A stretch of 64,000 nt of DNA, from NCBI GenBank assembly GCA_963801605.1, contig CAWDFP010000011.1, positions 64,001-128,000 on the forward strand. Direction: 5' to 3'. The position numbers and the translations under genes were made by a program. Within the stretch, counting starts at the first letter, position 1. Each line of letters begins with the position of its first letter. This stretch comes from an uncultured candidate division Zixibacteria bacterium. GTDB taxonomy: Bacteria > Zixibacteria > MSB-5A5 > UBA10806. Under the pieces are notes generated by a model. It was not told where the DNA came from and did no database searches. It saw only the letters and a list, made by a program, of their open reading frames with translations. This document shows, piece by piece, positions 14,101 through 49,897 of the stretch.

Positions 14101-14128
14101 AAACGCCTATTCTAGTATACAAAGACAA
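8156..14128 (-). CDS. sprA: SprA/Sov-like large outer-membrane protein (T9SS translocon family)
   Basis: 1990 aa; LQTIEAGN..L......QGLFGIK, Y.INYDIGQITF, AFIDDFEG, DTEDINNN, YYEYR, VWIDEMRV motifs typical of SprA; C-terminal Phe. Confidence 0.88.
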   Translation of the reverse strand: MSLYTRIGVLLSILIISSGVRATEISDLRVPLEINSRFVLRAEEGPPSSGKGLNDIAPCYLFKFSSLKYKRDIVFSPDGEYIVQRDYYGEYLLPSVEVEKLSNYVSFRRQYALNKSWQNDLRTVLGKGDVGDNKGAVSIDIPWEPPKAVTSIIGEGRSSIQVNGSRSISFSGRSEWEDGLKNTGTFKQSKFPTLQMEQTSRFKVTGNIGSKITVEVDQDSKRDVDLANTIKLRYKGGEDEILQTIEAGNTNLALPNAQLIGYSQNVQGLFGIKSTARIGNLDLTMITSQEKGTTEKSTISAGAKGTPHNIRDYEYLANTYFWLDVNHTAEDTLLSVELYVPGTPPNDPYGIAVVNPCDSLPCMTSQEYDRGEYIYTPFAPVYPADYVVVPMGWYIVLNKPIQPSQDLGAYIKYYHHDPANYQKIDTVIIGNLNYRRNQGTNDTTMVLQLLKHHNASSAFATWNRMWRNVYDLGSRDISPDGFELKIYKGTGAVNDQITDPEDLNSHCYITLLGLDSLTNNQTPGADCIFDFNNTKIDASRGHLIFPSRFPFISDSLPEAERVPNIYNEPRDAPTLPNSSKYYIYVKTSTRASTFSLGRANIMPNSEVVKLGDGTVLRRDVDYNINYDIGQITFLNDQALNPAANVSIDFEYAPFFMPEKKSLFGVAGQYSLWDNSNITMAAMYRSESASDPRPRVGREPKKGFVWDSNFDFNFKPEFMTNMVNFLPFIQTDAPSTFEVTGEVAQSFPNPNTKDEAFIDDFEGARSYTDLSTRRGIWTLASPPLDPSGVKYPLERRSDIWWYNPITTLRLTEIWPDRSVKQEDDRIDVLFLNYFPDTAFAAPESSWTGIMRPFFAGLADQTDMKFIEVWYYPDSVDLNEDPTLNLDFGAVSEDINNNGRLDSEDRQNAGSIGTFEPDLEDTGLDGVFDPQEPGYNAATNPDPNHDDWIWNPDQNPNNPDYSHINGTEGNNDDPDRRGRADTEDINNNNSLDTQNGYFEYTIHLKNPEFLADSTRTGWKLLRIPFQDSSVYKVRGISTSADFQRINFARIWFGGGKKAHRMAIASVQLVGNRWLEMPIAFPAGDTLRPEEKFEITIKNTQENSSYYSPPGVAGNLDRSTGIREKEQSLVLAYQNLASGHLSGAYTNLYTPEDYTQYSNLKMYVHGDTITAGRVGDAQLTFFLRLSQDQDARNYYEYRAVLDTGWSQNNWVDIDFAKLTELKYEMLKTPKPDSAPNTWMPDTTDGHYHIHGNPALSQVKTFIVGVEVGGQATELYSGEVWIDEMRVTGVRRKSDFAGRIQATARFSDLMTISGNYNRTGADFTPLAGKAVGSTSIGKALRIDLNPQKFFPPSLGMTIPVSVSWQSNLALPRLKPGSDIILNSAAQQIEKTENKSFSYSISESINRTTNNWLWNLTLNRIRAGYTFSRSEGTSPSNPSDRRDTYRGTGAYDLSPKAKPSFKPFFWTKYLFLPSKFYNSQLFYLPTQLSFTGEVNGSKSSTLNYRGITTSTRVKDLSLNGTTALNLFSTLHAGYNLSSARDIRDPNRFKLSINPSKLKLGREESFTQRFESSFQPKLFNPLENRFSFTSTYAENSDLTRNPDSTRATQMGGTFKTDVTLNLQSLFSFIKAPNRPTPTPPKRPDLPGGGDNPVKGDTTDAQKMRDEAPSLDEPKTGPGIGSPSWMLQRFAGFFRAIKPVKASFMKDRKLTLQGLLGRPSWQYMFGLINDPNVRSKATSGLAGQNQSVFSDDYQLDSGLQPGHGLDINSGYSMRKTKTLSSNTPTFTKSVTFPDIQVNLSGLEKLSLFKKVSNGVTLQTSYSKKVDNNGDASTGELYKRDTGKQWAPLAAISINFLNNVRSSLRYDLIRNISQNLRSEGMTIRDTYGTDKSIKLSFNYSFSAPKGLKLPLLKRVKFNSQLSISLDITLKNSTSESVSGGSRSMDVNRSQTVVEPRINYQFSKAITGGLRARWDDSNDKIQKRKHHIRELGINAEIRF

Positions 14129-22334: not shown

Positions 22335-22433
22335 GATTTAATTGCTTGACTGTCCATGAATTTATGCGATATTTAAGTTACTGTTTTTTCCATTTAGTCC
22401 GGCGTGAGTGGCTCTTTTAACGAGGAGGCCTCT

Positions 22434-24577
22434 ATGAGGCGGATAAGGTTATCTGGTATAGCTGCAGTCGCCCTCACTCTTTCAATCAGCGCTGTTACCC
22501 GGGGAACAATTGACCACATAAGCTCGACCCTTGTTTCGGGGACTGTCGAAACAATCTCTTTCAACGGACATTTTATTTATGGCGCCGGCGGTAATTTCCT
22601 GAAGGTATTTGATATGACCAATCCCGATTCCCTGAATTTGGTTAGTTTTCAGAGGTTGGGGAATCCGCATATCTTTTTCCACAACGGTTATGCGTATGTT
22701 GCATTTGATTATGGTTATCCCGAATTATACAGCGTGAACGAAGATGGGAGCCTCACATTTAGCCAGAGCCTCGATTGGGATTGCCCACAGGATATTTTAT
22801 TCAGGGGCGATACTGCCTTTGTGGCATCCTGCTGGAGCGGCTTTTACATGTACGATATTTCCAGTCCGCTCAATCCGCTACCGATTGGGAATTATTATAC
22901 TTTTAATTCCGGTTTTTATGATATCGAAGTTATCGGGAATTATGCTCTCCTGACCAGGGGAGACAGCCTGGAAGTGTTCGATATATCTAATCCAGGAAAC
23001 ATCACTCAGGTTTCATCAGTTGCTGCCGGTGGCGTTATTCACCGGCTTGAAGTGGGAGGCAACAGAGCTTTTCTCTCATGGGACCATTGGTATCCCGATC
23101 AGCACCGGGAATATGGAATCGATATGGTTGACATTTCCGATCCAGCTCATCCAATTTCGAGGGGTACTCATTCCTCTGTGGTAATTTATGATTTTTGCGA
23201 AAACAATGGCTATATTTACGCCTGCGACCATGAAGGCATTAAAATTCTACAGCCCTCCAGTTATGAGCTTGTGCAAATCGGCATGTTTGGGGCTATCACT
23301 TATTATATTGCTGGAAACGGAGACCATATTTTTATCGGCAAATCATCACTGGGGGATCTAACTGTTTTGGACGCCACCGATCCGGATAGCCTGATAGCGG
23401 ATGATACTTATTCGGGGCAGGGCGCGGTGCGTGATGTCGCCATAAATGGAAATTACGCCTACGTTGCCAGCTACTCAACCGGCCTAAGCTACTTATTTGG
23501 AATGAATGTTGTAGATATCTCTAATCCGGCGTCGCCGAACGTTGTAGGGAATATTCCAATTCGGGCCAATCCCTTTCTAACCGTATCAGTTTCTTTTCCG
23601 TATGCTTACTATTGCTGGACCGGCGGTGGGGAAATAATAGATATAAGCGATCCAGCCGATCCCATTATAGTGGCAGATACCACTCTTCTCGCCGGTACCG
23701 AATGCGCAGTTATCGGGAATAACGATTACATCGCCTGCGGAAGCAGCTTTAAGATAGTCGATGTAAGCGATCACTCCAATCCTCGGTTAATAGGGGGATA
23801 TTCCAACCTGGGAGGCAGCAACCATATTTTCGTAGCGGGCCAATATGCCTATATTAATGGCGGGGTTAATCCCGAATCGGGTGTCAGGATATTTAATATC
23901 AACGATCCGGCAAATCCAACTTTGGTTGCAACAGTGGACACAACGGCCGGCGATATCTTTGTTAGTGGCGATTATTTATATTTTACCAGTTATAATCCCG
24001 CACTTTTTATTTTTAATATTTCCAATCCCGCCGATCCGCAACTGGTCAGCTCCTACAGTTCGGGCCGCGCGAATTTGGTCACGGTTGACGGAGACTACGC
24101 ATTCCTGGCGACGGGTTCTGGCATAGATGCGGTAAATATATCGGATCGTCAAAATCCCCGGAGCGCAGCAAATTATAATCTAACCGACATTCAGAATATT
24201 TCTGTGTCGGGTGATCTTATTTACGTGGCGGCGTTATACTCGCTCGAAATACTGCGTTTTAGCCCAACCGGCATAGAGGCAATCGGCAGAGTGCCACTGG
24301 AATATTCCCTTTCCCAGAATTATCCCAATCCCTTTAATACCAGCACGGAGATTGCGTTCGAGCTCGCCCTGCCTCGACATGTGAAATTGTCAATATTTGA
24401 CATCCTGGGCCGCAAGATCATTACCCTGGCTGATGAAAACCTGAGGGCAGGATGCCAGAGCAGGATATGGAACGGGACCGATCAGGCCGGTCGAGAGGTG
24501 TCGTCGGGTATATACTTCTACCGTCTTGAAACAGGCGAACAAGCCGCCATAAAAAAAAATTAATACTTCTAAAGTAG
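22434..24577 (+). CDS. LVIVD-repeat protein with C-terminal T9SS-type/FlgD-like sorting domain
   Basis: Repeats 'GNYAYVA....l.ivDISNP..P'; tail SLSQNYPNPFN...SSGIYFYRL; removing one A from the run at 24551-24559 gives the usual KKLILLK* ending at 24577. Confidence 0.85.
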
Positions 24578-24732
24578 AATCTATCTGGCTGCGGGTGTTG
24601 CCTGATTCGTTTGACAACATAATACTGTAATTCAGCCTTAACACCTCGGGTAATGCCTGGATTATTCATGAGTAACCTGGAATTAACCCGATTGATGAAT
24701 TACTGTGATGATTTATTTTGAAAGAGGTTGGC

Positions 24733-26829
24733 ATGAAACGTTTTCTATTTTTTCTGACAGCCATATTAATTTTAGCAGGCAATACGCTCGCCCAGAATGT
24801 TGATTATGTCGAATCAACATTATGGACTGGAGCGGTAGATGCCAAAATAGTTGGCAATTATGCCTTTTGTGCCCTGGAAAATGGCATGGTGATACTGAAC
24901 GTGAGCGATCCCAATACACCAAGCTTCGTAAGCAGCTATTATCTTTCAGGGGGAGCTTACGAGATAGATGTGGCGGGCAATTACGCATATATCGCCGACG
25001 GTTCTATAGGGCTTCAAATAATAAATATCTCCGATCCTCAAAATCCGTTTTTTGCCGGGGGTATCGGCTTTACGGGCTATGTTCAGTGCGTAGATGTGTC
25101 GGGCAATTATGCCTATATTGCCAATACTTATTACCTTCGGATTATAGATATTTCCAATCCGGCGCAACCGTTGCCTTTGGGGATTTATAATCTACCTCAA
25201 TGGGCGGAGGAAGTAATCGTGTCGGGGAATTACGCCTATATGCCATGTTATTCCTCCGGACTCTTAATTGCAGATATTAGCAATCCTGCCAACCCGACTG
25301 CGGCTGGAGAATTTGTCACGGTAGGAAATGCCTTAGCGGTTGATGTATCGGGTTCATACGCTTATCTGGCATGCAGCGATTTTGGAATTATTATTCTGGA
25401 TATCAGCGATCCAGCCAATCCTGAGTATATTGGCAACTATAGCACTCCCGACAGGGCAGACGATATAGCAGTGGCCGGCAATTATGCTTATGTCGCTAAT
25501 GTTTCTTCCCTGCAAATTATCGATGTCACTGATCCAGCATCGCCGGTGTTTGCCAGCAGCGTTGGATCGCAAGGCTATACTTTGGGAATATCAATTGCGG
25601 GTAATTATGCTTATGAGGTCGATAACTGGCTGGGGATTCATATCGTAGATATTACCAATCCAAATGATCCCTTGATGGCGGGAAGCTATTATACGAATGA
25701 TTGGCCGGTTGATATTTCCGTTTCTGGCGAGTATGCTTTTTTGGCAGATTACACATCAGGACTTCAAGTGATAAATATAGCGAATCCCTCCGACCCGATA
25801 CTGGTGACAGGCTATGATACACCCGGGATGGCCACCGGGATTTACATTTCCGGCAATTACGCTTATGTTGCCGATTATAATGACGGAATCCAGATAATTG
25901 ATATCACAATTCCGTCCGAACCAAATCTGGTAGCATCATGTTATACCCCTGGAAACGCCAATAAAGTCTACGTGAGCGGTGATTATGCTTATGTTGCGGA
26001 TATCTATAGTATTCGAATCATCGATGTAAGCGATCCGGCTAATCCGATCACTGTCGGGAGTTATTCCACACCTCATTGGGCTTACAGTGTCGCTGTTTTG
26101 GGAGATTATGCCTATGTGGCGGATGCTGATTCCGGTTTGCAAATCATCAATATCAGCGATCCGTCCAACCCGGTATTTGCCGGAGCCTATAACGACGCGG
26201 GCACAGCTTACGACGTTGCCGTTTCCGGAAATTATGTATATTTGGGGAATACCCAGGAGATCATGCTGATATTTAATGTCTCAAATCCGAGCGCTCCTGA
26301 ACTTGTAAGTTATTTTAGAGGGGCCGGAGCGGTGGTTGGTATCTCCATTTTCGGGAATTATGCCTATCTATCGGAATTCAATGCTGGCCTTCAAATAGTG
26401 AATATTTCAAATCCGATGAATCCATCGCTGGTTGGAGGTTATGATACGCCGGGCCGCGCCATGGAAACTTACGCCGTGGGGAATTATGCATACGTAGCAG
26501 ATGAATATTCACTAATGATTTTGCACCTAAATAGCGATGCGGTTGGAGAAGAATCAAAAATTCCGAAAGCCTTTTCTCTTTCACAAAATTACCCCAATCC
26601 GTTTAATGCGAGGACCATAATCAAATATTCTCTACAAACGGCGTCCGATGTCATTATCGATATTTTTGATATTGAAGGCAGAAAGTTAGAGACAATTCAG
26701 GTGGGATACCAGGAGGCCGGAGAACATCAGCTGGCTTGGAATGCGGGCGATAAGCCATCAGGAGTATATTTCTATCGCCTCAAAACGGGTAAGACCTCCC
26801 GAACTGAAAAGTGTATTTTGATAAAATAA
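24733..26829 (+). CDS. LVIVD-repeat protein with C-terminal T9SS-type sorting domain
   Basis: Signal peptide ..TLA|QN; regular ~42-aa LVIVD repeats; SLSQNYPNPFN...SGVYFYRL...KCILIK. Confidence 0.9.
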   Translation: MKRFLFFLTAILILAGNTLAQNVDYVESTLWTGAVDAKIVGNYAFCALENGMVILNVSDPNTPSFVSSYYLSGGAYEIDVAGNYAYIADGSIGLQIINISDPQNPFFAGGIGFTGYVQCVDVSGNYAYIANTYYLRIIDISNPAQPLPLGIYNLPQWAEEVIVSGNYAYMPCYSSGLLIADISNPANPTAAGEFVTVGNALAVDVSGSYAYLACSDFGIIILDISDPANPEYIGNYSTPDRADDIAVAGNYAYVANVSSLQIIDVTDPASPVFASSVGSQGYTLGISIAGNYAYEVDNWLGIHIVDITNPNDPLMAGSYYTNDWPVDISVSGEYAFLADYTSGLQVINIANPSDPILVTGYDTPGMATGIYISGNYAYVADYNDGIQIIDITIPSEPNLVASCYTPGNANKVYVSGDYAYVADIYSIRIIDVSDPANPITVGSYSTPHWAYSVAVLGDYAYVADADSGLQIINISDPSNPVFAGAYNDAGTAYDVAVSGNYVYLGNTQEIMLIFNVSNPSAPELVSYFRGAGAVVGISIFGNYAYLSEFNAGLQIVNISNPMNPSLVGGYDTPGRAMETYAVGNYAYVADEYSLMILHLNSDAVGEESKIPKAFSLSQNYPNPFNARTIIKYSLQTASDVIIDIFDIEGRKLETIQVGYQEAGEHQLAWNAGDKPSGVYFYRLKTGKTSRTEKCILIK

Positions 26830-26909
26830 TGTCACTTAATTTTAAAAGAATATGCCGGCTCGGAGATGCAACATTACTTAAAAATAATGCTCAATCATCA
26901 GAGGCTGAC

Positions 26910-29038
26910 GTGAAACGCTCCATTATTAGCATAATAATAGTCCTATCCTTGAGTGCCACCGGGCTGGCTCAGAATATTGATTATGTCGAATCAACCCTGT
27001 GGACTGGAATTGCGGATGTGGAAGTTGAAGGTAATTATGCCTACTGCGCTATCGGCAATGGGCTTTTGGTTCTTAATGTTAGCAATCCGTCCTCTCCCAG
27101 TTTTGAAAGCCGATTTTATCTTTCCGGCGGGTGCGTTTATCCTGAAGGGGCGTGCGGGATAGACGTTGTCGGCAAATACGCCTATATCGCCAACGGCGAT
27201 TCTGGCCTTCAGATAATAAACATTCAAGATCCAGCTAACCCGACGCTGGTTGGCGGTTACTGTACCTGGGGTATTGCCTACGATGTTTTCGTTTCCGGCG
27301 ATTATGCCTATGTGGCTGATGGAATAACCGGTCTGGTAATACTAAATATTTCCAATCCCGCATTTCCGTCATGGGTTGGAACATATGTAACGTCAGGCTC
27401 GGCCAACGGCGTGTATGTTTCGGGCAATTATGCTTATATTGCCGACGGCATGTCGGGACTCCAAATTGTGGAAATCAGCGATCCGGCCAATCCAGTCGAA
27501 AAAGGTCATTACGGAACACGGGATTATGCTTACGGAATAGCAATTTCAGGCGAATATGCTTATCTGGCTGATGCCAGTTACGGTCTTCAAGTGATAAATA
27601 TTTCCGATCCGGCCAGCCCTCGATTATCGGGATCTTTTTATATGGCGCGGGATTACGCCCTTGATGTCCAGATTTCAGGCACCTTCGCTTATATTGGCGA
27701 TGCTATGGCCGGACTCAGAATTATCGATATATCTAATCCTTCGAATCCTACTTTAGTCAGCGATAGTCCCACGGATGGATCAGCCACAGGCATTAGTGTT
27801 TTGGGAAGTTACGTATACGAGGCCGATAATTGGACGGGGCTTCGTATTTTAAATATCTCGTCGCCGGGGGTTCCGATACTTACCGGAAGTTACCAAACGC
27901 TCGATCCTCCTCAGGCGGTATTCGTATCGGCTAACTATGCCTATGTGGCCGCCTGGAATTCAGGACTTGAGATTGTTGACATATCGATTCCGAGTAACCC
28001 GGCAGTAGTGGGAGGCTCTAATACGCCGGGCTATGCCCAGGGCGTTTATGTTTCGGGCAATTATGCCTATGTGGCCGATGGTTACCAGGGGCTCAAAATA
28101 ATTAATATCTCAGATCCGACAAATCCGGTTCTGATTGGAACGGGTGGCGCGCCAGGCTCCACATATGATGTCGTTGTTTCGGACAATTATGCTTATTTAG
28201 CAAATTATGACGGCGGTCTGCAAATCCTCAATATTTCAAATCCAGCCTGGCCAGGATTAATCGGGGGATATGATACCTCAGGTTCTGCGTTCAGCGTTTT
28301 CGTTTCGGGAATTTACGCTTATGTGGTCAATCAATTTCCCGGCTTTGAAATTATTAATATTTCTGATCCTGCTCAATTCCCGCCTTAGTTGGCACTTATA
28401 CGGTATATTCAACCGTTTGGAGTGTATTTGTTGCGGGCAACTATGCGTATCTGGCTTGCGGATATTGGGGGCTATTAATATTTGATGTCTCCAACCCCGT
28501 TAATCCGCAGTTAGTAGTTAGATATGATACGCCGGGAGAAGCCTATGACGTAGCCGTTTCAGGTAATTATGCTTATGTGGCCGACGGGCTTTTCGGACTT
28601 CATATTATAGATATCAGCGATCCGGCCAATCCGTTTTGGATTGATGGCTACGATACGCCGGGGTTCGCCAAAAATGTTTTTCTCTCAGGGCAATATGCTT
28701 ATATCGCTGATGAGTACTCCCTGATGATTCTGCATTTAAGAACAATTGGGGTTGAGGAGGGAAATAATATTCCTCAAAGGTTTGCCCTTCTCCAAAACTA
28801 CCCCAATCCGTTTAATGCTCAAACAACAATTAAATATGGTATTCCAACATCTTCGGATGTGCTGTTGGAGATATATGATATCACAGGCCGAAAGCTCGAA
28901 ACACTCTTATCGGAGTATCAGGAAGCCGGGGAGCATCAGATTATTTGGAATGCAGGGGATAGGCCGTCGGGAATATATTTCTATAAGTTAAAAGCGGGGG
29001 AGATATCTAAAACTGATAGATGCATTTTGATAAAATAG
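26910..29038 (+). CDS. LVIVD-repeat protein with T9SS-type sorting domain, frameshifted near 28375
   Basis: GTG start; GLA|QNIDYVESTLWTG nearly identical to the upstream paralog; repeats continue in a shifted frame to LLQNYPNPFN...RCILIK. Confidence 0.85.
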
Positions 29039-29141: not shown

Positions 29142-31348
29142 TTATCTCCCCAAGATTTCCAAACTCGCATATTTGGCCATGATCTTTTTAACTCCGGCGC
29201 GCTCAAAACGGATTGTTACCATCAGGTTTTCGCCCGATCCTTCTCGTCCGACAATTACGCCGTGTCCGAACTTATCATGTAGTACGGATGTGCCCAGCGG
29301 GAGTAGATCATCATAATCATACTCGGGTTCCGGGAAATGTTCTGTAGGCGTTTCTTTATGCACGTGCCGGGCCTGAGCGCCGTTTTTCGCTCCCCTGGAG
29401 TAGATATCGTTCCAGTAATTGAATCGCTCTAATTCTATTAACTCCTCCGGGAGATCCTTGAGAAACATCGACGGCCCGCCGGTAAAATCACCCCAACGTC
29501 TGCGAAATCCCGCCATCGAAAGATAAAGTTTGTTCTTGGCGCGGGTCATTCCCACGTAGCAGAGACGGCGCTCCTCCTCTAAATCCGCAGGCTGATCGAA
29601 TGATCGCTCCAGCGGAAAAAGACCATCTTCCATACCGGCCAGAAAAACCGTATCAAATTCCAACCCTTTGGCGGCGTGCAATGTCATAAGCGTTACCGCT
29701 GACGAGGCATTATTCCAGGTATCGATTTCAGCCAACAGCGCTACTTCCTCTAAAAAGCCTGCCAGGGACGGCGACTCGTTACGTTCGGCATATTCACGGA
29801 TACCGGCCACCACTTCGCCAACGTTTTCAGCGCGCACGTCGGATTCGGGAGTTTTCTCGTCCTCGAGCGCCCGCAGATAACCGGTTTCGGTGATAACTTT
29901 GCCGGCGATATCCTGCGGCTCAAGTTTGCCGACATCATCGGAAAGAGCCTTAAGTATTTTGACTAACTTATCAAGCTCGGCTTTGGCTTTCCCTTTGATT
30001 CCCAGTGATTCCAGCGGCAGGGAAAGAGCTTCGAGCATCGGTATTCCCTGAGACAACGCGAAAGCCTCCAGCTTAGCCACGCTGGTTTTGCCGATTCCGC
30101 GCCTGGGGCTGTTGATGATTCGCAGCAGCGCCAGATTATCCGCCGGATTTAACCAGTAACCGCAGGTACGCTATGATGTCTTTAACTTCAGCTCGCTCGT
30201 AAAACCGCACACCGCCCACGATGGTATATGGAAGCCCCTTGTAGCGCAGAATATCCTCGATTACACGCGATTGGGCATTAGTGCGGTACAGCACCGCGAA
30301 ATCGGATGGCGCTTTATCGTAAACCAATCCCAGGCGAATCTTTTCCACGACCGCCTCGGCCTCGTCGTGTTCATCACCGCAAAGAAGCAGCGTGATTTTG
30401 TCACCGCCGTCCTTTTCGGTGAATAAGCGCTTTTTCATGCGGCCCAGATTTTTCGAAACCACCTGGAAGGCGGCATCGAGGATAACCTGGGTGGAACGAT
30501 AATTTTGTTCGAGCTTGATGAGACTTTGGCCTCGGGGTAATCATCCTCGAAATCGAGAATGTTCGATATATCGGCGCCCCGCCAGGCATAGATCGATTGA
30601 TCATCGTCACCCACCACACACAGGTTATGATTCTTACCTGCTAAAAGATTTACCAGACGGTATTGGGCGTGATTGGTATCCTGGTCTCGTCAACGAGAAT
30701 ATATTTAAGCCGATCCTGATAATATTCCAGAATATCGGGATGCTGTACAAATAGCTCGACAACCTTCATCAGTAGATCGTCAAAATCAAAGGCATGACTT
30801 TGCGCCAAGCGCTTCTGGTATTCGGAATACACCTTAGCCACGTTTTGATCGAGGAAATCGGCGGCTTCATCCAGGAAATCGTCGGAGGTGATAAGCTGTT
30901 CTTTGGCGCGAGAAATCCGCACCTGTGCGGTTCCAAATGATGGCTGGCTATCGGGGATTCCCTTATCTTTATAAATTCTCTTTATCAACGCCAGCGATTC
31001 GGAATCATCATAGATTGAAAATGAACGTTTGTAGCCAAGCGCCTCGGAGTTATCGCGAAGCAATCGAGCGCAAAAAAGAGTGAAAGGTTGAAATCCAGAC
31101 GCGGCGACCTCGAAACCAAGCAGTTCGACTACTCGTTCCTTCATTTCCCCGGCGGCTTTGTTGGTGAATGTCACTGCCAGGATTTGATCGGGGCTGGCCG
31201 TATCGGTGGCGATCAGATGGGCGATTCGATGAGTGATAACCCTGGTCTTGCCCGACCCGGCTCCGGCTACCACCAGGAGGGGACCGTCGAGCTGTTCCAC
31301 TGCCTGACGTTGCGGTTCGTTTAGTCCTTCAAGATGCTTATATTTCAT
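29142..31348 (-). CDS. pcrA: UvrD/PcrA superfamily-1 DNA helicase, several frameshifts
   Basis: [63 protein letters not shown] and a C-terminal H.KFG.G Tudor-like domain, spread over four ORF pieces. Confidence 0.92.
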
Positions 31349-31498
31349 AGCGCGATAATATACGATATTATGACGATTTAACAAGTGGCCGGAGAAACTA
31401 TCATTGAATCAAACACCGAGACAGAATTATAAATTTCACTCAATAAAAAAAGACAGGGCGGGGCGCTGTTCTTTTTTAAGTATGGATAAATTGCCCAA

Positions 31499-33683
31499 CT
31501 ACTTCAAGAGCATAATCGGAATATTCTGTACTGCCTCGCCAAATGCGGCGCGGACGAAATACCTACCCGACGTAACTACATCGCCATTATCGGTGGTGCC
31601 ATTCCAGCTAATGGCGTGTTGTCCAGCCGTAAATTCGCGGTTGGCTAAGAGGGAGATTTTCCGGCCAAGAATATCATAAACCGCCAGCGATACCTTCCCG
31701 GCCTTTGGAAGTTCAAATCGAATCGTAGTCGATGAATTAAACGGATTGGGATAATTTTGAAGCAGTGCAAACGACTGGGGGAGTGTCGGAGCCGAGGGAT
31801 GGTCGATTCCCACAGCCTGGGTGCAATCGTAAAATCCGAGATTGGTGTAATCTCCGACGATTGCCAGATTACCCCTTACCACCATTCCGCCGGGGCTACC
31901 GGGAGTGTCATAAAGCCCAACCAATTCCGGCCGGCTGCCGTCGGTTACATCATAAATACAAAGTCCTATATTGCTGACAGTTAAAAAGGCGAGGTTATTG
32001 ACAATTTCTACGCCCTGAAGGTAATTGGTTGTCCCGTCAAAAATAGTAGTCGACGAAAGCGGCACCCAATTCGAGACGTTGGTTATATCAAAAATCCAGA
32101 GCTTATGGCTTCCTGTTATGTAGAGTCGGCCATCAGCGGCTCTGGCAGTGCGACAATATTGCATCCTGCCGATGTCATATTCCTCAATAATCGTTGGCGC
32201 CAGAGGATCAGTTAAATCGGCAACCTCGATAACCTGGGCGGAATTCTGGAAAATTGCATAGTGATCGAATGTTTCTAGAAAACCGGGTGTGGTGCTGTTA
32301 TTAAAAAATCCAACTTGCGCCATATTAGCAGGATCGGAAATGTCGATTATTCGCAAGCCGCCGTTTTCAAGCAAATAGATGTAATGATCGTATTTGGCCG
32401 CCTCGTAATGCACGTCATGTTCAGCCGTATAGCTGCCCAGTAACGCGGGCGATGCAGGATTGGAAAAATCAACTGCATACAGGCAGGTATTAGATTGTTG
32501 ACATGAATAGACGATATTTCCGACGTATATCAAATTCTTGATTATCTGAGCGAATTCAAAATTGCCGACTTCATGTGGATCGTTTATGTCATTAATATCG
32601 ATAGCTGTAATTTTGTATTCACCCTGAACAAATGCGATGTCGCTTTGAACCGTAACAGCTAAATCGTGCCCGTAACGATTATGAACTGCCTCCTCGTGAG
32701 GATTAGTTGGTTCATAAATATCAATCAGTCGAAGTCCGTGATAATAATCGGCGACATAAATCAAATCGTCTTTGATGGCGAAGTTGACTATGTCCTGGCG
32801 GAGGATAGTAGATGCCCATTGTTTGAGGATTGTAAGGCTCGGAAATATTAACTACCGCCAGGGGGCATTCAGGATCGCCATATGTCATGTAAGCGTAGTC
32901 GTTCCTGACTTTTATTTTAAAAGCATAGGAAAGCGAATCTATTCCGGCGATAATTTGCATCGTTTTCATATTAAGCACCTGTAATCCTCTACTGCCGCAG
33001 GCCAGGTAGGCATAATCGCCGGAAACCGAAACTCCGGACACCCAGGTACCATCCTCAAAGTAGAATCGATCAACGATCAGCGGGGAAGTTATCTGAGTGA
33101 TATCCATAACTTTCAATCCGTGTTCGCCCCAGGCGGCATAAGCCGTATCTCCTTTGATTTCGATATCACCCATTTCGAACTGATCCTCCGATTCCCAGAT
33201 AACCTGGGAGTTGATCGGATCGCTGATATCGATGATTCTCAAACCATAACTGCAAACAAACGCGTAGTTCCCCGAGATTCGAATCGATTGAATTGTGCTG
33301 GTCGCTAAAGGTATTCTATGAATAATAGCGGGTTCGGCCCGATTGGAGATATCAATCACTAAAACACCGCTTTGAAAGGTGCCCAGATAAGCATAATTTC
33401 CGCTTACGGCCACCGCGTTGGCGCAATCAAAGGTAGTGTCGCCGATATAACACTGCCCAATATCCATGATGGCGTTGGGCTCAGAGATATTTACAATGCG
33501 CAACCCATCGGAATTGCAGGCGAGATAAGCATAATCGCCGTCGATACAAACATCTGTTACGCCATCACCCCAATTATGATAATATTGATTGACACTGGTA
33601 ATGTTGAAATTGTCTTGAGCGTGAACCAGGCCAAACGATAAGGCGATGATCGCGAGAACAAATAAGCAGCACTTCCCATTCAT
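31499..33683 (-). CDS. LVIVD-repeat protein with T9SS-type/FlgD-like tail, frameshifted near 32800
   Basis: Signal VHA|QDN; LVIVD repeats in both ORF halves; LLQNYPNPFN...TSGRYFVR...IMLLK. Confidence 0.85.
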
Positions 33684-35812: not shown

Positions 35813-36899
35813 ATGGAATTTACTTTAGAAAAACGAATCGCCCACCGGGCAATTGTCAACGGCAAAGAGGTCCTGATCTTCAGCTCTAACGATTACCTGG
35901 GGCTATCGGCTCATCCAGCGGTGTTGCAGGCCGCATCCGAGGCCGCAGTGCGATATGGCGTTGGAACAGGCGGAGCGCCCGGCACTACCGGCACTACCCA
36001 GATCCATACAGAGCTATCGGCAGAAGTTGCGTCTTTTCAGTCGCGAAAGAATGCTGCTCTTTTCCCCTCCGGCTACCAGGCCAACCAGGCGATCCATCAG
36101 GCTCTCGATAGTGACCGCACCATTTTCTATGTCGATAACCGCCATCACCCGTCGGCCATAGATGGAGTGAAACTGGCCAAAAATTCGAGGATGGTGCGAT
36201 TCGATCATAACAATCTCGATATTCTCAAGGGGGCGATCCTGGCTCATCGGGGGATGGTCAATATCGTTTCGATCCCGTCGGTCTTTACGGTTGACGGCGA
36301 TATTGCGCCGCTCGATCGACTTTATGAGATGAAACAGAAGCTTGGCTTGATGCTAATTTTCGATGAAGCGCACGCCACCGGCTGCCTGGGAAAAACGGGA
36401 CGGGGGATAGAGGAGCATTTCAATCTAATCGGCGCCGCTGATTTTATCATGGGGACATTCTCCAAATCGCTGGGTTCGCAGGGTGGATTTCTGGCATACA
36501 ACGATGACGCTGCTAAGCTGTTGCGCGCTCATTTCCGCACGCTTAGAATATTCGACGTCGCTGTCAGCCGTATCGGCTGCCGCCGCGTTGAAAGCGTTAC
36601 GGCTTCTAGAAAGCGACCCTACGCTGATGGCATCTCTTCGTCACGTTAAACAAACGATTATCGAAAATTGCCAGGCGCTTGATATTCCTCTCATTTCCAA
36701 AGAGAGCATGATTATGCTCCTACCAAACGATAATTGCGACGCCCTGCAAGCGCGCTTATTTGAGGCCGGTTTTCTGACAATAGTAGTGAAGGCTCAACTG
36801 GCATCGGGCTTGCTTCATTGCTTGCGCATTATTCCGATGGCCACCCAAAGCGACGACGAGATCAAATCGTTCGCTCAAGCCATAAAGGCGAATCTATAA
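35813..36899 (+). CDS. PLP-dependent alpha-oxoamine synthase family enzyme (BioF/KBL/SPT), frameshifted near 36540
   Basis: FSSNDYLGLS, FPSGYQAN, DGDIAPL, DEAHATG, GTFSKSLGSQGG; C-terminus continues in ORF 36483-36899. Confidence 0.8.
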
Positions 36900-40270: not shown

Positions 40271-41185
40271 ATGTCTGATTCGCGTCCTCTACAGGAAGAT
40301 TACCGCCGTTATCTCGACCCGGCTACAGTCAGTAAGCTCTCATCCATCGAGCTTAAGGCCCGGCTCGTGGTTGAGGGGTTTATCGTGGGACTGCACCGCT
40401 CTCCCTATCATGGATTTTCGGTGGAATTCGCCGAACATCGTCAATATATGCCGGGCGATGATTTTAAGCATATCGATTGGAAAGTTTACGGTAAGTCGGA
40501 TCGTTTTTATATCAAGCAGTTCGAGGAAGAAACCAATCTCAAGGCCTATATCCTCTTAGATGCGTCCCGCTCAATGGGCTATAAATCTAACGGTATCAGC
40601 AAGTTGGAGTATGGCTCCTATCTTGCGGCCTCGTTAGCGTACCTAATGCTTCGTCAGCAGGATGCTCCCGGGTTGCTCATCTATGATGAAAAAATCCGAA
40701 GCTATATCCCACCCAAGGGCGCTAGATCCCATATTACACCGATACTAAGACAGCTCAATAATACCGAGCCATCCAATCAAACAGACGCCGGCGTGGCTTT
40801 TCATGAGTTGGCTGAGCGAATCAAGCGCCGGGGTTTGATCATAGTTATCTCAGACCTGCTTGACGACCCCGACAAGCTTCTTATGGGCCTCAAACATTTC
40901 CGGCACCGACAGCACGAAGTTATCGTTTTTCAAATACTGGATCCTTTCGAACGCAGTTTCGAATTTAGTACTGAAGCTCGTTTTCGTGATATGGAAACTG
41001 GCCGGGAGTTGTTGACCGATCCCTGGCAAGTCAGGAAGGAGTATACCAAACGTCTGGAGGAGTATATCGGGCAGATCAGCCGCGCCTGCCGCGATTCGAG
41101 AATAGATTATCAACTTCTGGACACATCGATCCCGTTCGACCGGGCGCTTTTTGGATACTTGTCAAAACGATCAAAATTAGGTTGA
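40271..41185 (+). CDS. DUF58 domain protein
   Basis: GLHRSPYHGFSVEFAEHRQY.PGDD.KHIDWK, LLDASRSM, VISDL. Confidence 0.92.
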   Translation: MSDSRPLQEDYRRYLDPATVSKLSSIELKARLVVEGFIVGLHRSPYHGFSVEFAEHRQYMPGDDFKHIDWKVYGKSDRFYIKQFEEETNLKAYILLDASRSMGYKSNGISKLEYGSYLAASLAYLMLRQQDAPGLLIYDEKIRSYIPPKGARSHITPILRQLNNTEPSNQTDAGVAFHELAERIKRRGLIIVISDLLDDPDKLLMGLKHFRHRQHEVIVFQILDPFERSFEFSTEARFRDMETGRELLTDPWQVRKEYTKRLEEYIGQISRACRDSRIDYQLLDTSIPFDRALFGYLSKRSKLG

Positions 41186-41252
41186 CGAATTGAAAAATAT
41201 TGCGATATTAACAAAGATGTAATTTCTGTCAAGTAAGAGTAGGAGCAGTAGT

Positions 41253-42134
41253 ATGAAGAAGTTTCTGGTATCATTTGTCTTTCTCGCCTCTCTGCCCGCC
41301 GTTTCGCTGGCCGGGCCCCAAATGTCGGTGCCTGAGACACATTGGGATTACGGCAATGTGCCCCAAAACAGCATCCTGACGCACGATTACTGGATCAGAA
41401 ACATAGGTGACGATACCTTGAGGATTATAGATGTCAAACCTGGCTGAGGATGCACCTCAGCGCCAATCCAGAAAAAGGCATTGGCGCCGGGCGATTCCAC
41501 GGTCGTGGAATTAATTTTCGGAACCAAGACATCAAGAGGAAGAATTACCAAGAACGCCAAGATTACCTGTAACGACTCTACCAGGGCATCGCTGACAATC
41601 GATTTTGCAGCCAATGTCATCCTGGATCCGGATACTGTTTCGGTAGTAAAGTATACGCCGCAGCAAATAACATTCAGCAAGGATACGACCAAATGCGCGG
41701 TGACTGTCGCAAACAATGACTCTCTTCAGGCCAACCTCGTCATGGTCGGGATACCTGTTGATAATATCAGCGCCAAGGTAAAGAACTCGGCGATTAAAAA
41801 GGGAAAAAACACAAAAATAGAATTTGAATGGAAAGGCACAGAGCCTGAATATGACGCCAACCATGTTTTAACGTTTGCGACAGGTCTTCCGGATAAAGAA
41901 AGTGCGCGTTTTTCAGTGCCGTACACTATCAGAGGTACCAAAGGCCCGAAACCCGCGACGAAACCTCAGAATTCGGCGCCAATAAAGGCCAAAGACCTCG
42001 GTAAGACCGCAGTACCCGGAACCGTTGGGCAAGTGCAGCCCCCGGGGGTAAGTGTCAAACCGTTAAAACAGATTACGCCAGATAGCATTAACACAGTTAA
42101 GCCAATGCCTAACACGAAGTGGCCGCCTAAATAG
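41253..42134 (+). CDS. Secreted DUF1573-domain protein with in-frame UGA, probable selenoprotein (293 aa)
   Basis: ORFs 41253-41447 and 41481-42134 are in one frame; join reads WDYGNV...IRNIGDDTLRIIDVKPG-TGA-GCT...LAPGDST, matching the DUF1573 'CGCT...i.PG' pattern with the first Cys as TGA. Confidence 0.8.
41460..41487 (+). promoter_or_regulatory. Candidate bacterial SECIS hairpin
   Basis: GCGCCAAT/ATTGGCGC perfect 8-bp stem plus CC/GG and AGAAAAA loop, starting 12 nt after the UGA. Confidence 0.65.
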
Positions 42135-42158
42135 GCGTTTAGATAGCTTTTATCGATG

Positions 42159-42190
42159 AGCCGCGAATTAAGTTCAATCGCGGCTTTTTT
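42159..42190 (+). terminator. Intrinsic terminator after the DUF1573 gene
   Basis: AGCCGCGA...TCGCGGCT followed by a T tract. Confidence 0.7.
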
Positions 42191-42300: not shown

Positions 42301-43465
42301 ATGAATTTCGAGCTCAACGATGATCAGCAATCGGTCCAGAAGCTTTGCAGGGAGTTTGCGGCCAAAAATGTTACACCCAATATCCGCGAAAACGACCGGG
42401 CGCAGAAATTCGATCCATCGATTATGACCAGAATGGCAGAATCTGATCTCTTAGGTCTTTGCCTGCCTGAAAAATATGGCGGGGCCGGAATGGATTATAT
42501 CTCCCTGGGATTAGCCTGTGAGGAATTGGAATATGCCGATACATCGGCCCGCGTGATACTCTCGGTGCATATCGGCCTTAATTCGCTAACTCTCCTTTCA
42601 TGGGGCAACAAATTCCAAAAAGAGAAATATCTCATACCGCAGGCCAAAGGAGAGAAGATCGCCAGTTTCGGCCTGACCGAACCGAACGCCGGTTCCGATG
42701 CAGTTGGAATTCAATCAACCGCTGTGAAAAAGGGGAATAAGTATATCTTGAACGGCGAGAAGATGTGGATCAGCTTAGCCGATGTAGCCGATAATTTTCT
42801 CGTCTTTGCCTGGACTGATCTCGAAAAAAAGAGAAAGCGCGACCACACCGGCATATCGGCTTTTATTATCGAAAGGGCCTTTTCCGGCGTGACCACCGCT
42901 ACAATCCACGGCAAGCTTGGGGTGCGGGCCGGCAATACCGGCTCAATCGCCATGCAGGATGTTGAAGTGCCGTCGGAGAATCTTCTGGGCAACGAGGGCG
43001 AGGGTTTCAAGATCGCCATGTTCTGCCTGGAGCAGGGACGATACACCGTAGCAGCCGGTTCAACAGGATTGATCAGGGCATGTCTCGACGCCAGTGTCAC
43101 CTATTCCCACACCCGTAAAACTTTCGATATGCCGATTGCCGAACATCAGCTTGGTCAAGGAGATGATTGCCGGCATGGCAGCGGGATATGAGTACTCAAG
43201 GCTTCTCTGGCTAAAAGCCGGATGGCTGAAAAACATGGGGGAGAGAGCTACCAGAGAAACCGCCCTGGCCAAGTGGATCGCCTGCGAGCAGGCTGAAAAA
43301 GCGGCTGCCGATGCCGTTCAGGTGCATGGAGCGTACGGATTCTCAGATGAATATCCGGTGGAGCGCTTCTATCGCAATTCCAAGGGGGCCTCGATTTATG
43401 AGGGCACCCGCGAAATCCAGAAACTGATGCAAGCCGATTATGCGCTCGGGTTTCCGAAAGGATAA
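42301..43465 (+). CDS. Acyl-CoA dehydrogenase, frameshifted near 43150
   Basis: FGLTEPNAGSD, LNGEKMWIS, GEGFKIAM; QVHGAYGFSDEYPVERFYR and IYEGT in the second frame. Confidence 0.92.
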
Positions 43466-43548
43466 GCCTCGCCGCTGCAACCTGCCTGCCTGGCCGTTTG
43501 GGAATGATGTATAACAACCTTGGTGGCGTCAGGTCCGCGAACCTGACG

Positions 43549-44552: not shown

Positions 44553-44778
44553 GATCTTACGTGTTGGCGCCTCAGGATGTCACAAAGATTTCCATCCTGA
44601 GGTATAAAACACGCTCCAATTCCGCTCGGAAAAAATCGAGTCTTTTAGACTTGCTTTTCAGGACGTTATAACGTAATTTTTTGCCTTGTGAATAACGGGC
44701 GACGGTCCGCCGCTTGCCTTTATGGTTTCGATTATCGTTTTTGGGCCGTCGATGGTGACATTAAACTAAGAGGTGCCA

Positions 44779-46645
44779 ATGGCCTCCGACCTGTACAATG
44801 AGACTGCGTATCGGCAATTTGTCGAGAACGTAAGGCCAACTTTCAAAGGCAGTAATATAGAAGAATATTCGATGCGCAAGCTGCGCGCTCTGTCGATCAA
44901 AACCGGCACAAAAACCATATTCGGCTCGTGGGGCTGGCGCAGCGCCGTTTCCAGCCGTATCGGCCCGCGGACAGTTTATCTCGGCTCGCCGTCGGTGCGG
45001 CTGCCCAAGCTGACCGATCTGATGCGCGGCTTTGTCGAAAATGCCCCCGAGGAACTGCATAAAGTGTCTCAGGTGATGCGCGATCTGCCGTTTGTCCATG
45101 TCCGTCGCCAGATGGGCGATAACCCCGAATTCAATCCGATTTGCAATCTGTATATGTCGGTGTCCGATCCCAAGCTTTACCGCACCGCCTACCTGTGGGC
45201 CAACACCATGGGCGATGTCAACCCCAAACGCCCCGGCCCGGAATTCACCATGATCCATATCCCCGAGGAACATCCGATTCGTCAGCAGGTGCTCTCACTT
45301 CCCGAATACAATATGAATATCTGCCTGGGAAGCGACTATGTCGGCGAGGATAAGAAGGGATTCCTTCGGCAGGCGATGTGGGCCGCCGACCAGCGCGGCA
45401 TGCTGGGTCTTCACGCCGGCACCAAAGTTGTCTTCATCAAAGACCCGATATCGGGCAAGCTCAGAAAATTCGGCGTGCTGTTGTTCGGTCTCTCGGCCAC
45501 CGGTAAATCGACCTGGTCATGCCATCAGCTTGGGCTGAACTACAAGGAAGGCGAGATGACCCAGGTCTGCCAGGATGATATCGTTTTCCTGCGCAAGGAT
45601 GGTTCCGCATTCGGCTCCGAGCGCGGCTTCTATGTCAAGACCGATGTCGATGTCAAGCTGCAGGAGGCGATGTATTACGCTCTGATCGATAAGACCGCTC
45701 TGTATGATAATGTCATGATCGATGCCAACGGCCGTCCCGATTTCCTCGATGAGCGTCTCAACGCCAACGGCCGCGCGGTGATCAGAAAAGATAAGGTAGC
45801 CATCAAGGTCGGACGAAAACTGGTTCCGATCGAGTCCGAGAGCATCAATCTGCCGCCGCTCGAGGAGCTCGACGGCCTGGCGTTCGCGTTTATTACGCGC
45901 CGTCATACGATCATGCCGTTTGCGCAGAGGCTGAATCTGGAGCAGGCGGCGTTGGCTTATCTCTGGGGCGAATCGACTCACAGCTACGCTTCCGAGCCGG
46001 CCAAGGCGGGCGAATCGGTCCGCACAGTCGGCACCGATCCGTTTATCATCGGTTCGCGCGGCTTCAAGGTCAACCGCTTCTATGAGATCATCAAGGGTCT
46101 CGATGCCAAGTACCCCGGCAAGCTGATGTTCTTCCAGTACAACACCGGCGGCGTCGGCGAGATTTTGGAACGCACCGAGGTTGGCGGGCAGATCAAGAAG
46201 AATCTGGTGCGCAAGGCGGTGCGAGTGCCAATCGAACTCATGGCGGCGATTGCAGCGCGGCGATCTGCGCGGCACCAATAAGTATCAAGCAGTGCATTTT
46301 CGGCACCGAGGAGGTTATCGAGACCGCGGCGGCGACCTGACCCCGTTTGACCCGCACAAGTTCTATTCGCAGGAGCAGATCGATTTCTATCTGACCGATA
46401 TTGTCAATGGCCGCAAGAAATTCACCGACGAGATCAACGCCGAGGGGCTGAACCCCGATATCCTCAAGGCGGCTGAGAAATCGTTCGCCGATCTCGCCCA
46501 AGGAGAAGCCGAAATTTGTCTCTCCGGGCATGGATCTCGGCAAGGGCGCGACAGAAGCCGGGGATCGACACCTCGCCACCCGCGTTCGATCTTCTCCGAC
46601 CTCCCGCCGGTCACCCGACCGCCGCGACGGTTTGCGGGGAGGTAG
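44779..46645 (+). CDS. Phosphoenolpyruvate carboxykinase (ATP-type family, divergent), 3' end frameshifted
   Basis: GSDYVGEDKKG.LR, LGLHAG.K, FGLSATGKST, QDDIV, GSE.GFYVKT, N.NGRAVI, YNTG. Confidence 0.8.
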
Positions 46646-48746: not shown

Positions 48747-49052
48747 ATGAAGGGGATTCGGCGGCAATATGATCGGGCCTTTAAGCTTTCGGCGGTGAGG
48801 CTTCTATTAAGTTCGGATAAGCCACTGATACAGGTCGCCAGGGGGCTTGGTATCTCTGGTAGCATGCTTCGCAGATGGCGGGAGCAGGTCCAGGAGCGTG
48901 GAGGAGAAGCATTCTCTGAGTCAGGCCGAATGGAGCGAAGGGAGATATTGCGTCTTCAGCGGGAGAATCGGGAGCTTCGCCGGGAGAATGAGATTCTAAA
49001 AAAAACTCTGGGCTTCGAGAAGCCGGCAAAAGGGAGAGGTACCGGGCAATAG
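48747..49052 (+). CDS. IS3 transposase OrfA
   Basis: RRQYDRAFKLSAV HTH and E...L.RE...LRRENEILKK coiled coil; A8 run near 48998-49005 is the likely -1 slip site. Confidence 0.9.
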   Translation: MKGIRRQYDRAFKLSAVRLLLSSDKPLIQVARGLGISGSMLRRWREQVQERGGEAFSESGRMERREILRLQRENRELRRENEILKKTLGFEKPAKGRGTGQ

Positions 49053-49084
49053 CGGCCCAGGCGGGTGAATATTCGGTTCGGGAG

Positions 49085-49897
49085 TTGTGCAGTCATTTAG
49101 GTGTATCCGCCAGTGGTTATTATGGCTGGCTGAGGGGTGGGACAAGCAGGCGACAGCGGGAGAACGAGGGGCTTTTGAAAGCGATCAGGGAGATTCACAA
49201 ATCAGTTCGAGAGACATATGGCAGTCCTCGGATGAGGGCGGAGCTTCTCTCCCGGGGCTACTTATGCGGGCACAACCGGGTGGCTAGACTCATGAGCGAG
49301 GGTGGTATTATATCCAGAATGACGCTACGCTTTAGACGGCTTACCAAGGCCGGGAAGAGGCGTCCTGCGGCACCCAATCTTTTAGACAGGAAGTTTGCAG
49401 TTGCCACGGCCAACTCTGTCTGGGCTTCGGATATTACCTACATTCCCACTTCCGAGGGGTTTTTATACTTGGCGGTAGTAATGGATCTGTACAGCCGAAC
49501 AGTGGTTGGTTGGGGGATGTCATCGAGGCTGACGCCTGACCTAGTTGCATCTGCTTTACGACAGGCCATAGATAAGCGAGAGATTAAACCGGGGCTCGTG
49601 CATCACAGTGATCGGGACATGCTCTACTCCAGCTACCTCTATCAGGGTCTTCTCTCAGACAATGAGATTACCTGTAGTATGAGCCGCAAGGGCAATTGTT
49701 ATGATAATGCGGTGGTGGAATCGTTCTTTGGGAGCCTAAAGAATGAGTTTTGCGCTTTCGAGCACTTTGAAAGCCGAAACGAAGCCACCATAAGGATATT
49801 TGAGTGGATTGAAGCGTTTTACAATAGAGTCAGACGCCATTCAACATTGGGATATTTAAGCCCGTTTGACTACGAGAGCAAAAACGCTTATGCTTAA
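49085..49897 (+). CDS. IS3 transposase OrfB (DDE), in the -1 frame relative to OrfA
   Basis: YGSPRM, WASDITYI, DLYSR, HHSD, GNCYDNAVVESFFGSLKNE, YNRVRRHSTLGYLSP. Confidence 0.93.
   Translation: MCSHLGVSASGYYGWLRGGTSRRQRENEGLLKAIREIHKSVRETYGSPRMRAELLSRGYLCGHNRVARLMSEGGIISRMTLRFRRLTKAGKRRPAAPNLLDRKFAVATANSVWASDITYIPTSEGFLYLAVVMDLYSRTVVGWGMSSRLTPDLVASALRQAIDKREIKPGLVHHSDRDMLYSSYLYQGLLSDNEITCSMSRKGNCYDNAVVESFFGSLKNEFCAFEHFESRNEATIRIFEWIEAFYNRVRRHSTLGYLSPFDYESKNAYA

Follow-up and report, generated by a model that had tools for sequence, protein, structure and literature searches.

The locus described here raised the question of whether two adjacent open reading frames, separated by nothing but a TGA codon, form a single gene for an exported selenoprotein and, if so, by which RNA signal the UGA is recoded. 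The window (the whole stretch of DNA analyzed, 64,000 nucleotides from an uncultured bacterium of the candidate division Zixibacteria) carries at 41253-42134 (+) a reading frame whose single internal stop is the TGA at 41445-41447. As stated in the initial annotation, this codon lies in frame between the two ORFs, and its read-through yields a protein of 293 amino acids that ends at a TAG and displays the sequence VKPG-U-GCTSAP...LAPGDST around the TGA. The extent of this coding sequence, with TGA taken as Sec, agrees with that of full-length TGA orthologs. The gene is present in the public protein collection as two pieces of 64 and 217 amino acids, the full-length form being absent, just as had been anticipated for annotation pipelines.

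The ATG is preceded at a distance of 7 nt by a ribosome-binding site, AGGAG (41241-41245, +), recognized from the sequence. A putative sigma-70-like promoter that would belong to the gene itself (TTGACG-16-GATATT with a TG extension; 41182-41209, +) is weak, since the pattern has 12 matches in the region against 4 expected by chance. The upstream neighbor encodes a DUF58 protein (40271-41185, +) and this synteny is conserved in the family. Downstream, where a single terminator had been reported, a terminator-like stem followed by a T run is indeed found (42158-42190, +; fold z -2.2), but this stem, whose loop measures 11 nt, is missing from the list produced by a terminator scan allowing loops of 3-8 nt.

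The only long hydrophobic stretch of the protein is its N-terminus, which ends in S-L-A. Hydropathy and the N-termini of the orthologs, both judged by eye, support the proposed signal peptide (residues 1-20, without lipobox; 41253-41312, +) and hence likely export. Residues 25-121 (41325-41615, +) match DUF1573 (PF07610) with 75 bits against a gathering cut-off of 26.1. The TGA falls in the middle of this domain, at the first Cys of its CGC motif, as the initial annotation had recognized, and the resulting U-G-C motif occupies residues 65-67 (41445-41453, +). A second Ig-like domain devoid of conserved Cys, delimited by alignment, structural model and fold search, extends over about residues 129-228 (41637-41936, +). 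It is followed by a poorly conserved, probably disordered tail rich in Pro and Lys (13 Pro and 11 Lys in 65 residues; 41937-42131, +), a character that was also assessed on the ortholog tails.

Several other genes of the window are split by frame changes (29142-31384, 31499-33683, 35813-36899, 42301-43510 and 44773-46645). The earlier claim that these breaks are indels holds for the two that were compared with relatives, an acyl-CoA dehydrogenase and an aminotransferase-like gene, both of which proved to be frame changes; the others were judged by eye, and include genes that we take to encode a PcrA-like protein, a repeat protein and a PEP-carboxykinase-like protein. Elsewhere in the window we noticed two ORFs that resemble what we take to be an IS3-type transposase pair (48747-49897), a protein of 1990 amino acids presumably similar to SprA-type outer-membrane proteins (8156-14128) and three tandem, repeat-rich, presumably exported proteins (22404-28388), two of which end in what we assume to be a YPNPFN-type sorting tail.

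If the TGA were a genuine stop codon, or had arisen by sequencing error or by a nonsense mutation of recent date, the gene would be split or dead. This explanation can draw on the several apparent indel errors of the assembly, selB included, and on a read search that did not recover the source sample: the share of matching words stayed at or below 0.07 in every sequencing run, RNA runs were absent from the matches listed, and the contigs aligned to the locus came from relatives. It is nevertheless made very improbable by comparison with relatives. The same TGA is present at the aligned codon in 13/13 genomes of the same family, at 37-61% identity and with the reading frame conserved on both sides, and in three further genomes of the same order. 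A stop at residue 65 would moreover cut the domain mid-way. By hand count, 78 of the 193 PF07610 matches in 60 relatives contain one TGA and none a TAA or TAG, and 54 of the 60 genomes possess a TGA copy. At 181 distinct motif sites, a count that leaves out 26 HMM hits without callable motif (mostly second domains, a few at locus edges and one U-G-V), the codon was TGA in 84 cases, TGC in 75 and TGT in 22, without a single TAA or TAG. The check for alternation between TGA and Cys codons proposed in the initial annotation thus came out in favor of selenocysteine.

Reading of the UGA as Trp, Cys or Gly through a changed code or a suppressor tRNA, selenium playing no part, is even harder to reconcile with the data and appears extremely improbable: TGA is an ordinary stop in this genome, terminating 260 of its 958 long ORFs; of the 43 tRNAs detected, a single one carries the anticodon TCA, and it scores as tRNA-Sec; and the codon alternates with Cys codons alone. 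We conclude that TGA 41445-41447 is very likely decoded as selenocysteine, as judged from the alignment of this codon with the TGA of relatives and with the TGC or TGT of paralogs.

Full-length Cys homologs exist at 79% and 73% identity. On a quick tree in which the site and the next 24 residues were masked, the Cys label requires at least 12 changes on well-supported branches, indicating that Sec and Cys interconvert often. This switching, as read from the sequences, suggests that in the widespread DUF1573 family the reactive residue is likely the first Cys of CGC. The second Cys codon of the motif is TGC in 81/84 TGA copies as compared to 72/97 Cys copies. Variants lacking the second Cys were also encountered (U-G-V and U-G-S; L170, L202 and L205), as well as one match with two TGA codons (G264:C192). 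At 11 loci (L049, L136, L154, L155, L158, L160-L162 and L164-L166), tandem arrays of 2-4 DUF1573 genes mix Sec and Cys copies and are transcribed away from lexA, one of these lexA genes having been scored as LexA and the others being alike by eye.

The genome contains the machinery for selenocysteine insertion. A search for selA, selB, selC and selD, as had been suggested, detected tRNA-Sec, selA and a TGA-bearing selD above cut-off, together with selB in two pieces. They are clustered at G000:C6:1293255-1299699 in the order selC, an unrelated membrane-protein ORF, selD (with its UGA), selA and selB, the frame of the latter changing near 1298435. Because selB is whole in 5/5 relatives tested, and because the two further breaks compared with relatives also turned out to be frame changes, we tentatively read this frameshift as an assembly indel. 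The Sec genes are near-universal in the class (selA in 59/60 genomes, selD in 58/60, tRNA-Sec in 58/60) and, because almost every relative has them, their co-occurrence with the TGA gene is uninformative.

Other likely Sec genes of the same genome encode an exported thioredoxin-like/TPR protein (W-U-S-A-C), two Omp28-related proteins (W-G-U-G-Y-C and W-C-U-P-S-C), a SelW-like protein (C-V-L-U), which is the only one of the five to exceed its family cut-off, and a DUF1573 paralog of 373 amino acids. Four of these five candidates have N-termini that resemble signal peptides by eye. The list may be incomplete, as a stricter coding-score threshold missed the DUF1573 gene of the window and a looser screen recovered it.

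The initial annotation implied that the selenoprotein family might be new. This is not supported by the literature, in which a selenoprotein OS_HP2 with the motif UGC was reported in 2007 (PMC1976440, Table 2). It was connected to pfam07610, with a UxC motif, in 2008 (PMC2398784), and two reviews (PMC9312934, PMC13188914) include it in their tables as "DUF1573 domain-containing protein, UGC". Our gene is very likely an unannotated member of this family, listed since 2007. Like the listed DUF1573/OS_HP2 selenoproteins, which are known from prediction only, it combines PF07610, Sec at the first Cys of CGC and Cys homologs; unlike them, the Zixibacteria clade adds two Ig domains and a Pro/Lys tail. 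Its score with the OS_HP2 model of NCBIfam, NF041425, is 64.9 bits (67.1 for an ortholog) for a cut-off of 100, which places it outside this narrow model. The supplement of BSepDB (PMC13326102) includes at least seven Zixibacteria genomes among those listed and contains no family table; Zixibacteria DUF1573 genes may be present in its web database. Our literature searches, which covered sources outside subscription journals and returned partly off-topic matches, retrieved no description of Zixibacteria selenoproteins or of a bacterial SECIS with two hairpins or a distance of 50 nt. The protein family is known, and what appears to be new is its predicted recoding signal, which departs from the consensus.

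According to this consensus, used in the bSECISearch model, a bacterial SECIS is a hairpin with a small loop beginning with G[G/U] at 16-37 nt after the UGA (PMC13188914, legend of Fig. 2). The initial annotation had reported a perfect stem starting 12 nt 3' of the UGA, and we find it as described, with GCGCCAAT from 41460 and ATTGGCGC from 41480. This proximal hairpin (41460-41487, +) comprises an 8-bp stem plus 2 bp and a loop AGAAAAA situated 22 nt after the UGA, with a G in second position, so that it formally agrees with the consensus. Its predicted energy is -17.8 kcal/mol and the region folds better than 200/200 shuffles (z -4.3). Compared with synonymous shuffles, the region is more stable in 14/17 clade members (clade z -3.2) and in 6/56 Cys copies. 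The stem is thus favored among orthologs, yet the loop differs in both length and sequence: with a detector of gap-free hairpins, a loop at 16-37 nt having G as its first or second base was found in 2/17 clade members. The SECIS-like hairpin of the initial annotation is accordingly real as far as this stem goes, but the call was probably incomplete, as a second hairpin was overlooked.

This distal hairpin (41493-41512, +) has an 8-bp stem, of which TCCAC-GGTC-GTGGA forms the core, and carries its GGUC loop at 41501-41504. It is predicted to fold independently with an energy of -9.5 kcal/mol. It shares with the consensus SECIS its location in the coding region 3' of the UGA, a loop of 3-9 nt beginning with G[G/U], a stem of 4-16 bp and an energy below the limit of -7.5 kcal/mol. 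It differs by its spacer, the loop lying 53 nt after the UGA instead of 16-37 nt, and by the presence of another hairpin with a variable loop between the UGA and the conserved one. The distance of 53 nt is the same in 17/17 clade members and in 13 further genes.

The distal hairpin is conserved at positions that could vary without changing the protein. All four fourfold positions of codons 82-85 (TCC ACG GTC GTG) are identical in 16/16 orthologs, the remaining 34 fourfold columns showing values of 0.31-0.93 with the four highest in or beside the proximal stem. Held-out metagenome genes coding for S-T-V-V use the same bases in 13/13 cases; S-T-V-V is also encoded by Cys homologs (P0010 and P0011). 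Conversely, a tandem Cys duplicate in genome G001 (L026:1559-2374), which is nested in the clade with a support of 99-100 on a quick tree with the site and the signal codons masked, has lost both hairpins. Another Cys duplicate, in G055 (L053:511-1257), keeps a SECIS-like hairpin, and its change from Sec to Cys was probably recent. RNAalifold recovered the distal hairpin but not the proximal stem. For the segment that contains the distal hairpin, folding surpassed that of synonymous shuffles in just 5/17 clade members, and no covariation was detected for the hairpins (score 0.070, reached by 53/500 shuffles), the core pairs of the distal hairpin never varying, so that its structure is deduced from complementarity and invariance, not from covariation. 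As kin are not independent, these counts overstate the number of evolutionary events.

Other clades of DUF1573 genes display different hairpins at different distances: GCTGTC-GGT-GACAGC at 42 nt, TTCCCC-CGGGY-GGGGAA at 40-41 nt, CCTCCT-GGTC-AGGAGG at 39 nt and GGAAT-AGTT-ATTCC at 29 nt. Overall, hairpins with a G[GU] loop and a stem of 5 bp or longer are found at 38-60 nt in 61/78 TGA copies as compared to 6/56 Cys copies, and at 16-37 nt in 17/78 TGA copies (14 of which form the 29-nt clade) as compared to 4/56 Cys copies. The Cys copies retrieved amounted to about 55 of the 115 Cys matches in the relatives. At random genome positions such hairpins occurred in 125/3042 cases. The hairpin types, A to E, were named from the data and counts within types are partly circular, which does not apply to the masked tree, the held-out set or the set from another phylum (that of G061, a Syntrophobacterales record). 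In the held-out set, which excludes a hit lacking the motif and a short row, the frequencies were 32/41 TGA against 3/28 Cys copies at 38-60 nt, and 0/41 against 2/28 at 16-37 nt. In the other phylum, where two U-G-S genes were left out, they were 10/19 TGA against 1/11 Cys copies at 38-60 nt and 5/19 against 0/11 at 16-37 nt, three of these five being one and the same hairpin at 37 nt. The loop of TGA copies in this phylum is at about 37-39 nt, as opposed to 53 nt in our gene. At type B loci (e.g. L041, L050 and L054), GCTGTC-GGT-GACAGC goes with the protein sequence A-V-G-D-S and the Cys copies mostly have A-P-G-D-S; the amino-acid change from A-P-G-D-S to A-V-G-D-S was apparently driven by the RNA signal.

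Taken together, the sequence comparisons suggest that the SECIS of this gene has two hairpins and that the distal GGUC hairpin is probably the one bound by SelB. Alternatively, the proximal hairpin could be the SelB-binding SECIS, the distal one serving ribosome pausing, mRNA stability or protein binding. The position of the proximal hairpin, which starts 12 nt after the UGA with its loop at 22 nt, its strong fold and its excess over synonymous shuffles would all suit this role, as would a docking model in which the SECIS loop lies about 13-20 nt from the codon, 57 Å corresponding to about 13 nt, although a hinge can absorb differences (PMC4605307). We nonetheless consider it the less likely of the two readings, given that a G[GU]-loop hairpin is present at 16-37 nt in 1/17 orthologs and at 38-60 nt in 16/17, that in the 29-nt clade, where 14/14 members have a loop at this distance, a distal hairpin is mostly absent (present in 1/14), and that the other Sec genes of the genome carry GGUC, GUG or GUU loops. 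In these genes the loops of the thioredoxin-like and Omp28-related proteins are GUG or GGUC at 22-23 nt, and that of selD lies at 33 nt. Two further origins of the invariant 12-mer, an overlapping reading frame and a repeated DNA operator, are unlikely as well, no other frame being open across the site in all orthologs and the distal 14-mer occurring once in the genome; both facts also speak against a role of the distal hairpin outside SelB binding.

The two-hairpin arrangement may have counterparts. Many selD genes of relatives (L107-L126) display two tandem hairpins: one that starts about 13 nt 3' of the UGA and, behind it, one with a GG(U)N loop at 32-33 nt. When the RNA is folded, the path from the UGA to the loop in the clade of our gene, 53 steps long before folding, has a median of 27 steps, which is near the 21-23 steps of other clades. 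This path is shorter than in synonymous shuffles in 32/32, 11/12 and 4/4 members of three other clades and in 14/21 selD genes; in the clade of our gene the figure is 8/17, so that here shuffled sequences give equally short paths. SelB itself is of ordinary length (623-625 amino acids in four relatives), which likewise does not favor the long-spacer reading. Reviews mention that non-canonical SECIS classes exist, and canonical SECIS elements account for 87.4% of BSepDB entries, the other 12.6% being uncharacterized (PMC13326102). We are slightly inclined to a more general view in which a bacterial SECIS can be bipartite: a spacer hairpin with a free loop, placed at the mRNA entrance of the ribosome, would present to SelB a hairpin with a GG(U/G) tetraloop up to 53 nt past the UGA. 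DUF1573 genes would have solved this problem in at least five ways (29, 39, 40-41, 42 and 53 nt), one of them through a protein change, and the selD of Zixibacteria would follow the same plan at 33 nt.

What the protein does was approached through its predicted structure and its neighbors. A single-sequence search of the PDB gave nothing useful. An AlphaFold2 model of residues 21-232, computed from an alignment of 107 sequences (pLDDT 96), consists of two beta-sandwich domains, in agreement with the Ig-like fold proposed initially, and places the U-G-C motif in a turn that follows one of the strands of domain 1. The closest solved fold to domain 1 is 2QSV from Porphyromonas gingivalis (2qsv_A; Z 14.1, rmsd 1.6 over 100 residues; profile match with E 1e-7), followed by ASH, MSP and PapD-like domains with a likeness to pilus chaperones at Z 8-9.7. 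The fold is thus common to 2QSV, HYDIN, CEP192, MSP and pilus chaperones, and sharing it shows no function; no usher, pilin gene or pilus operon was noticed within 1.5 kb of the gene. In the 107 aligned proteins both motif positions are invariably Cys or Sec and Gly34 is invariant, His44 and Lys100 are nearly so, and there is no further conserved Cys.

A full-text literature search for DUF1573 returned, among the texts it covered, no paper on function. The nearest functional analogue that we found is CsgC, a periplasmic protein of Ig fold with a CxC of -139 mV, which its authors compare with the N-domain of DsbD (PMC3173608). Our protein would share with both an exported Ig-like beta sandwich, here taken from the predicted model, and two closely spaced Cys positions within a loop, arranged as CxC in CsgC. 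It differs from them by an ASH/PapD-like fold, which is doubled, and by Sec; neither CsgC nor the N-domain of DsbD is among the fold or profile matches listed, and the likeness is one of analogy, not of homology. Because CsgC is this nearest analogue and because the selenoproteins characterized so far are for the most part redox enzymes (PMC1794560), a role in thiol redox chemistry of the envelope is, by analogy, the somewhat better supported of the functions considered.

Alternatively, the U-G-C of this selenoprotein could bind a soft metal or metalloid (Cu, As or Hg) in the envelope, with no disulfide exchange. Hints of such a function come from a clade of long paralogs (350-400 amino acids), in which 6/12 loci lie in arsenic-resistance islands beside ArsR, ArsC, ArsM, Acr3 or ArsG-like genes (some labels being assigned by eye), from three other TGA copies that adjoin Acr3-like genes and from the near-invariance of His44 and Lys100. 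In the same-family loci, the clade of our gene itself sits after the DUF58 gene, with no metal genes seen within 1.5 kb and no redox clue either. The arsenic islands, moreover, also hold DsbD/CcdA-like membrane proteins (DsbD/ArsG-like at two of the six loci) and are therefore compatible with redox chemistry too, and the predominance of redox enzymes among selenoproteins of known function tells against mere binding. We regard metal or arsenic binding as possible but less probable than the envelope thiol-redox role. TGA copies located in or beside arsenic islands (ArsR, ArsC, ArsM, Acr3, ArsF/ArsG-like) or a CcdA/DsbD-like gene were recorded at loci L127, L144-L146, L148 and L149, and also at L041, L163, L168 and L139. 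In a separate, mostly Cys clade of DUF1573 genes, 15/17 Cys loci follow, on the same strand, a PLP enzyme resembling cysteine synthase or cysteate synthase, often with a cohesin-domain gene behind (L021, L171-L186 and L128).

The sequence, its conservation and the machinery genes, combined with the predicted fold and RNA structures, lead us to propose the following course of events. The UGA is almost certainly served by tRNA-Sec, SelA, SelB and SelD, which would insert Sec at this codon. When the UGA occupies the A site, the footprint of the ribosome would extend over about 12 nt and the proximal hairpin would start precisely there; by looping out 28 nt, this hairpin would probably bring the GGUC loop within reach of the winged-helix domains of SelB. 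The signal peptide would then, in all likelihood, export the chain, which would fold into two ASH/PapD-like beta sandwiches followed by the flexible Pro/Lys tail; we hold Sec insertion and an exported protein with two Ig domains, considered jointly, to be highly probable. Finally, and with a confidence only a little above even, U65 and C67 may alternate between a Se-S ring and their reduced state and engage envelope-protein thiols in exchange reactions, a type of activity that has been demonstrated for the DsbD N-domain and suggested for CsgC.

As a gene, this locus calls for an ordinary annotation correction, gene callers having split a selenoprotein of a listed family. Its predicted recoding signal could be of wider interest: a SelB-type loop at 53 nt that is fixed at synonymous sites, is lost upon reversion to Cys and is swapped for other GG-loop hairpins in sister clades. 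It opens the question of how far SelB reaches and whether an intervening hairpin shortens the path, which bears on SECIS predictors and on the production of recombinant selenoproteins, in which the choice of residues immediately following Sec is normally limited by the SECIS. A bipartite SECIS, if true, would account for some of the 12.6% of bacterial selenoprotein genes that lack a canonical element, and would yield a rule by which a SECIS could be positioned at a long distance from its codon.
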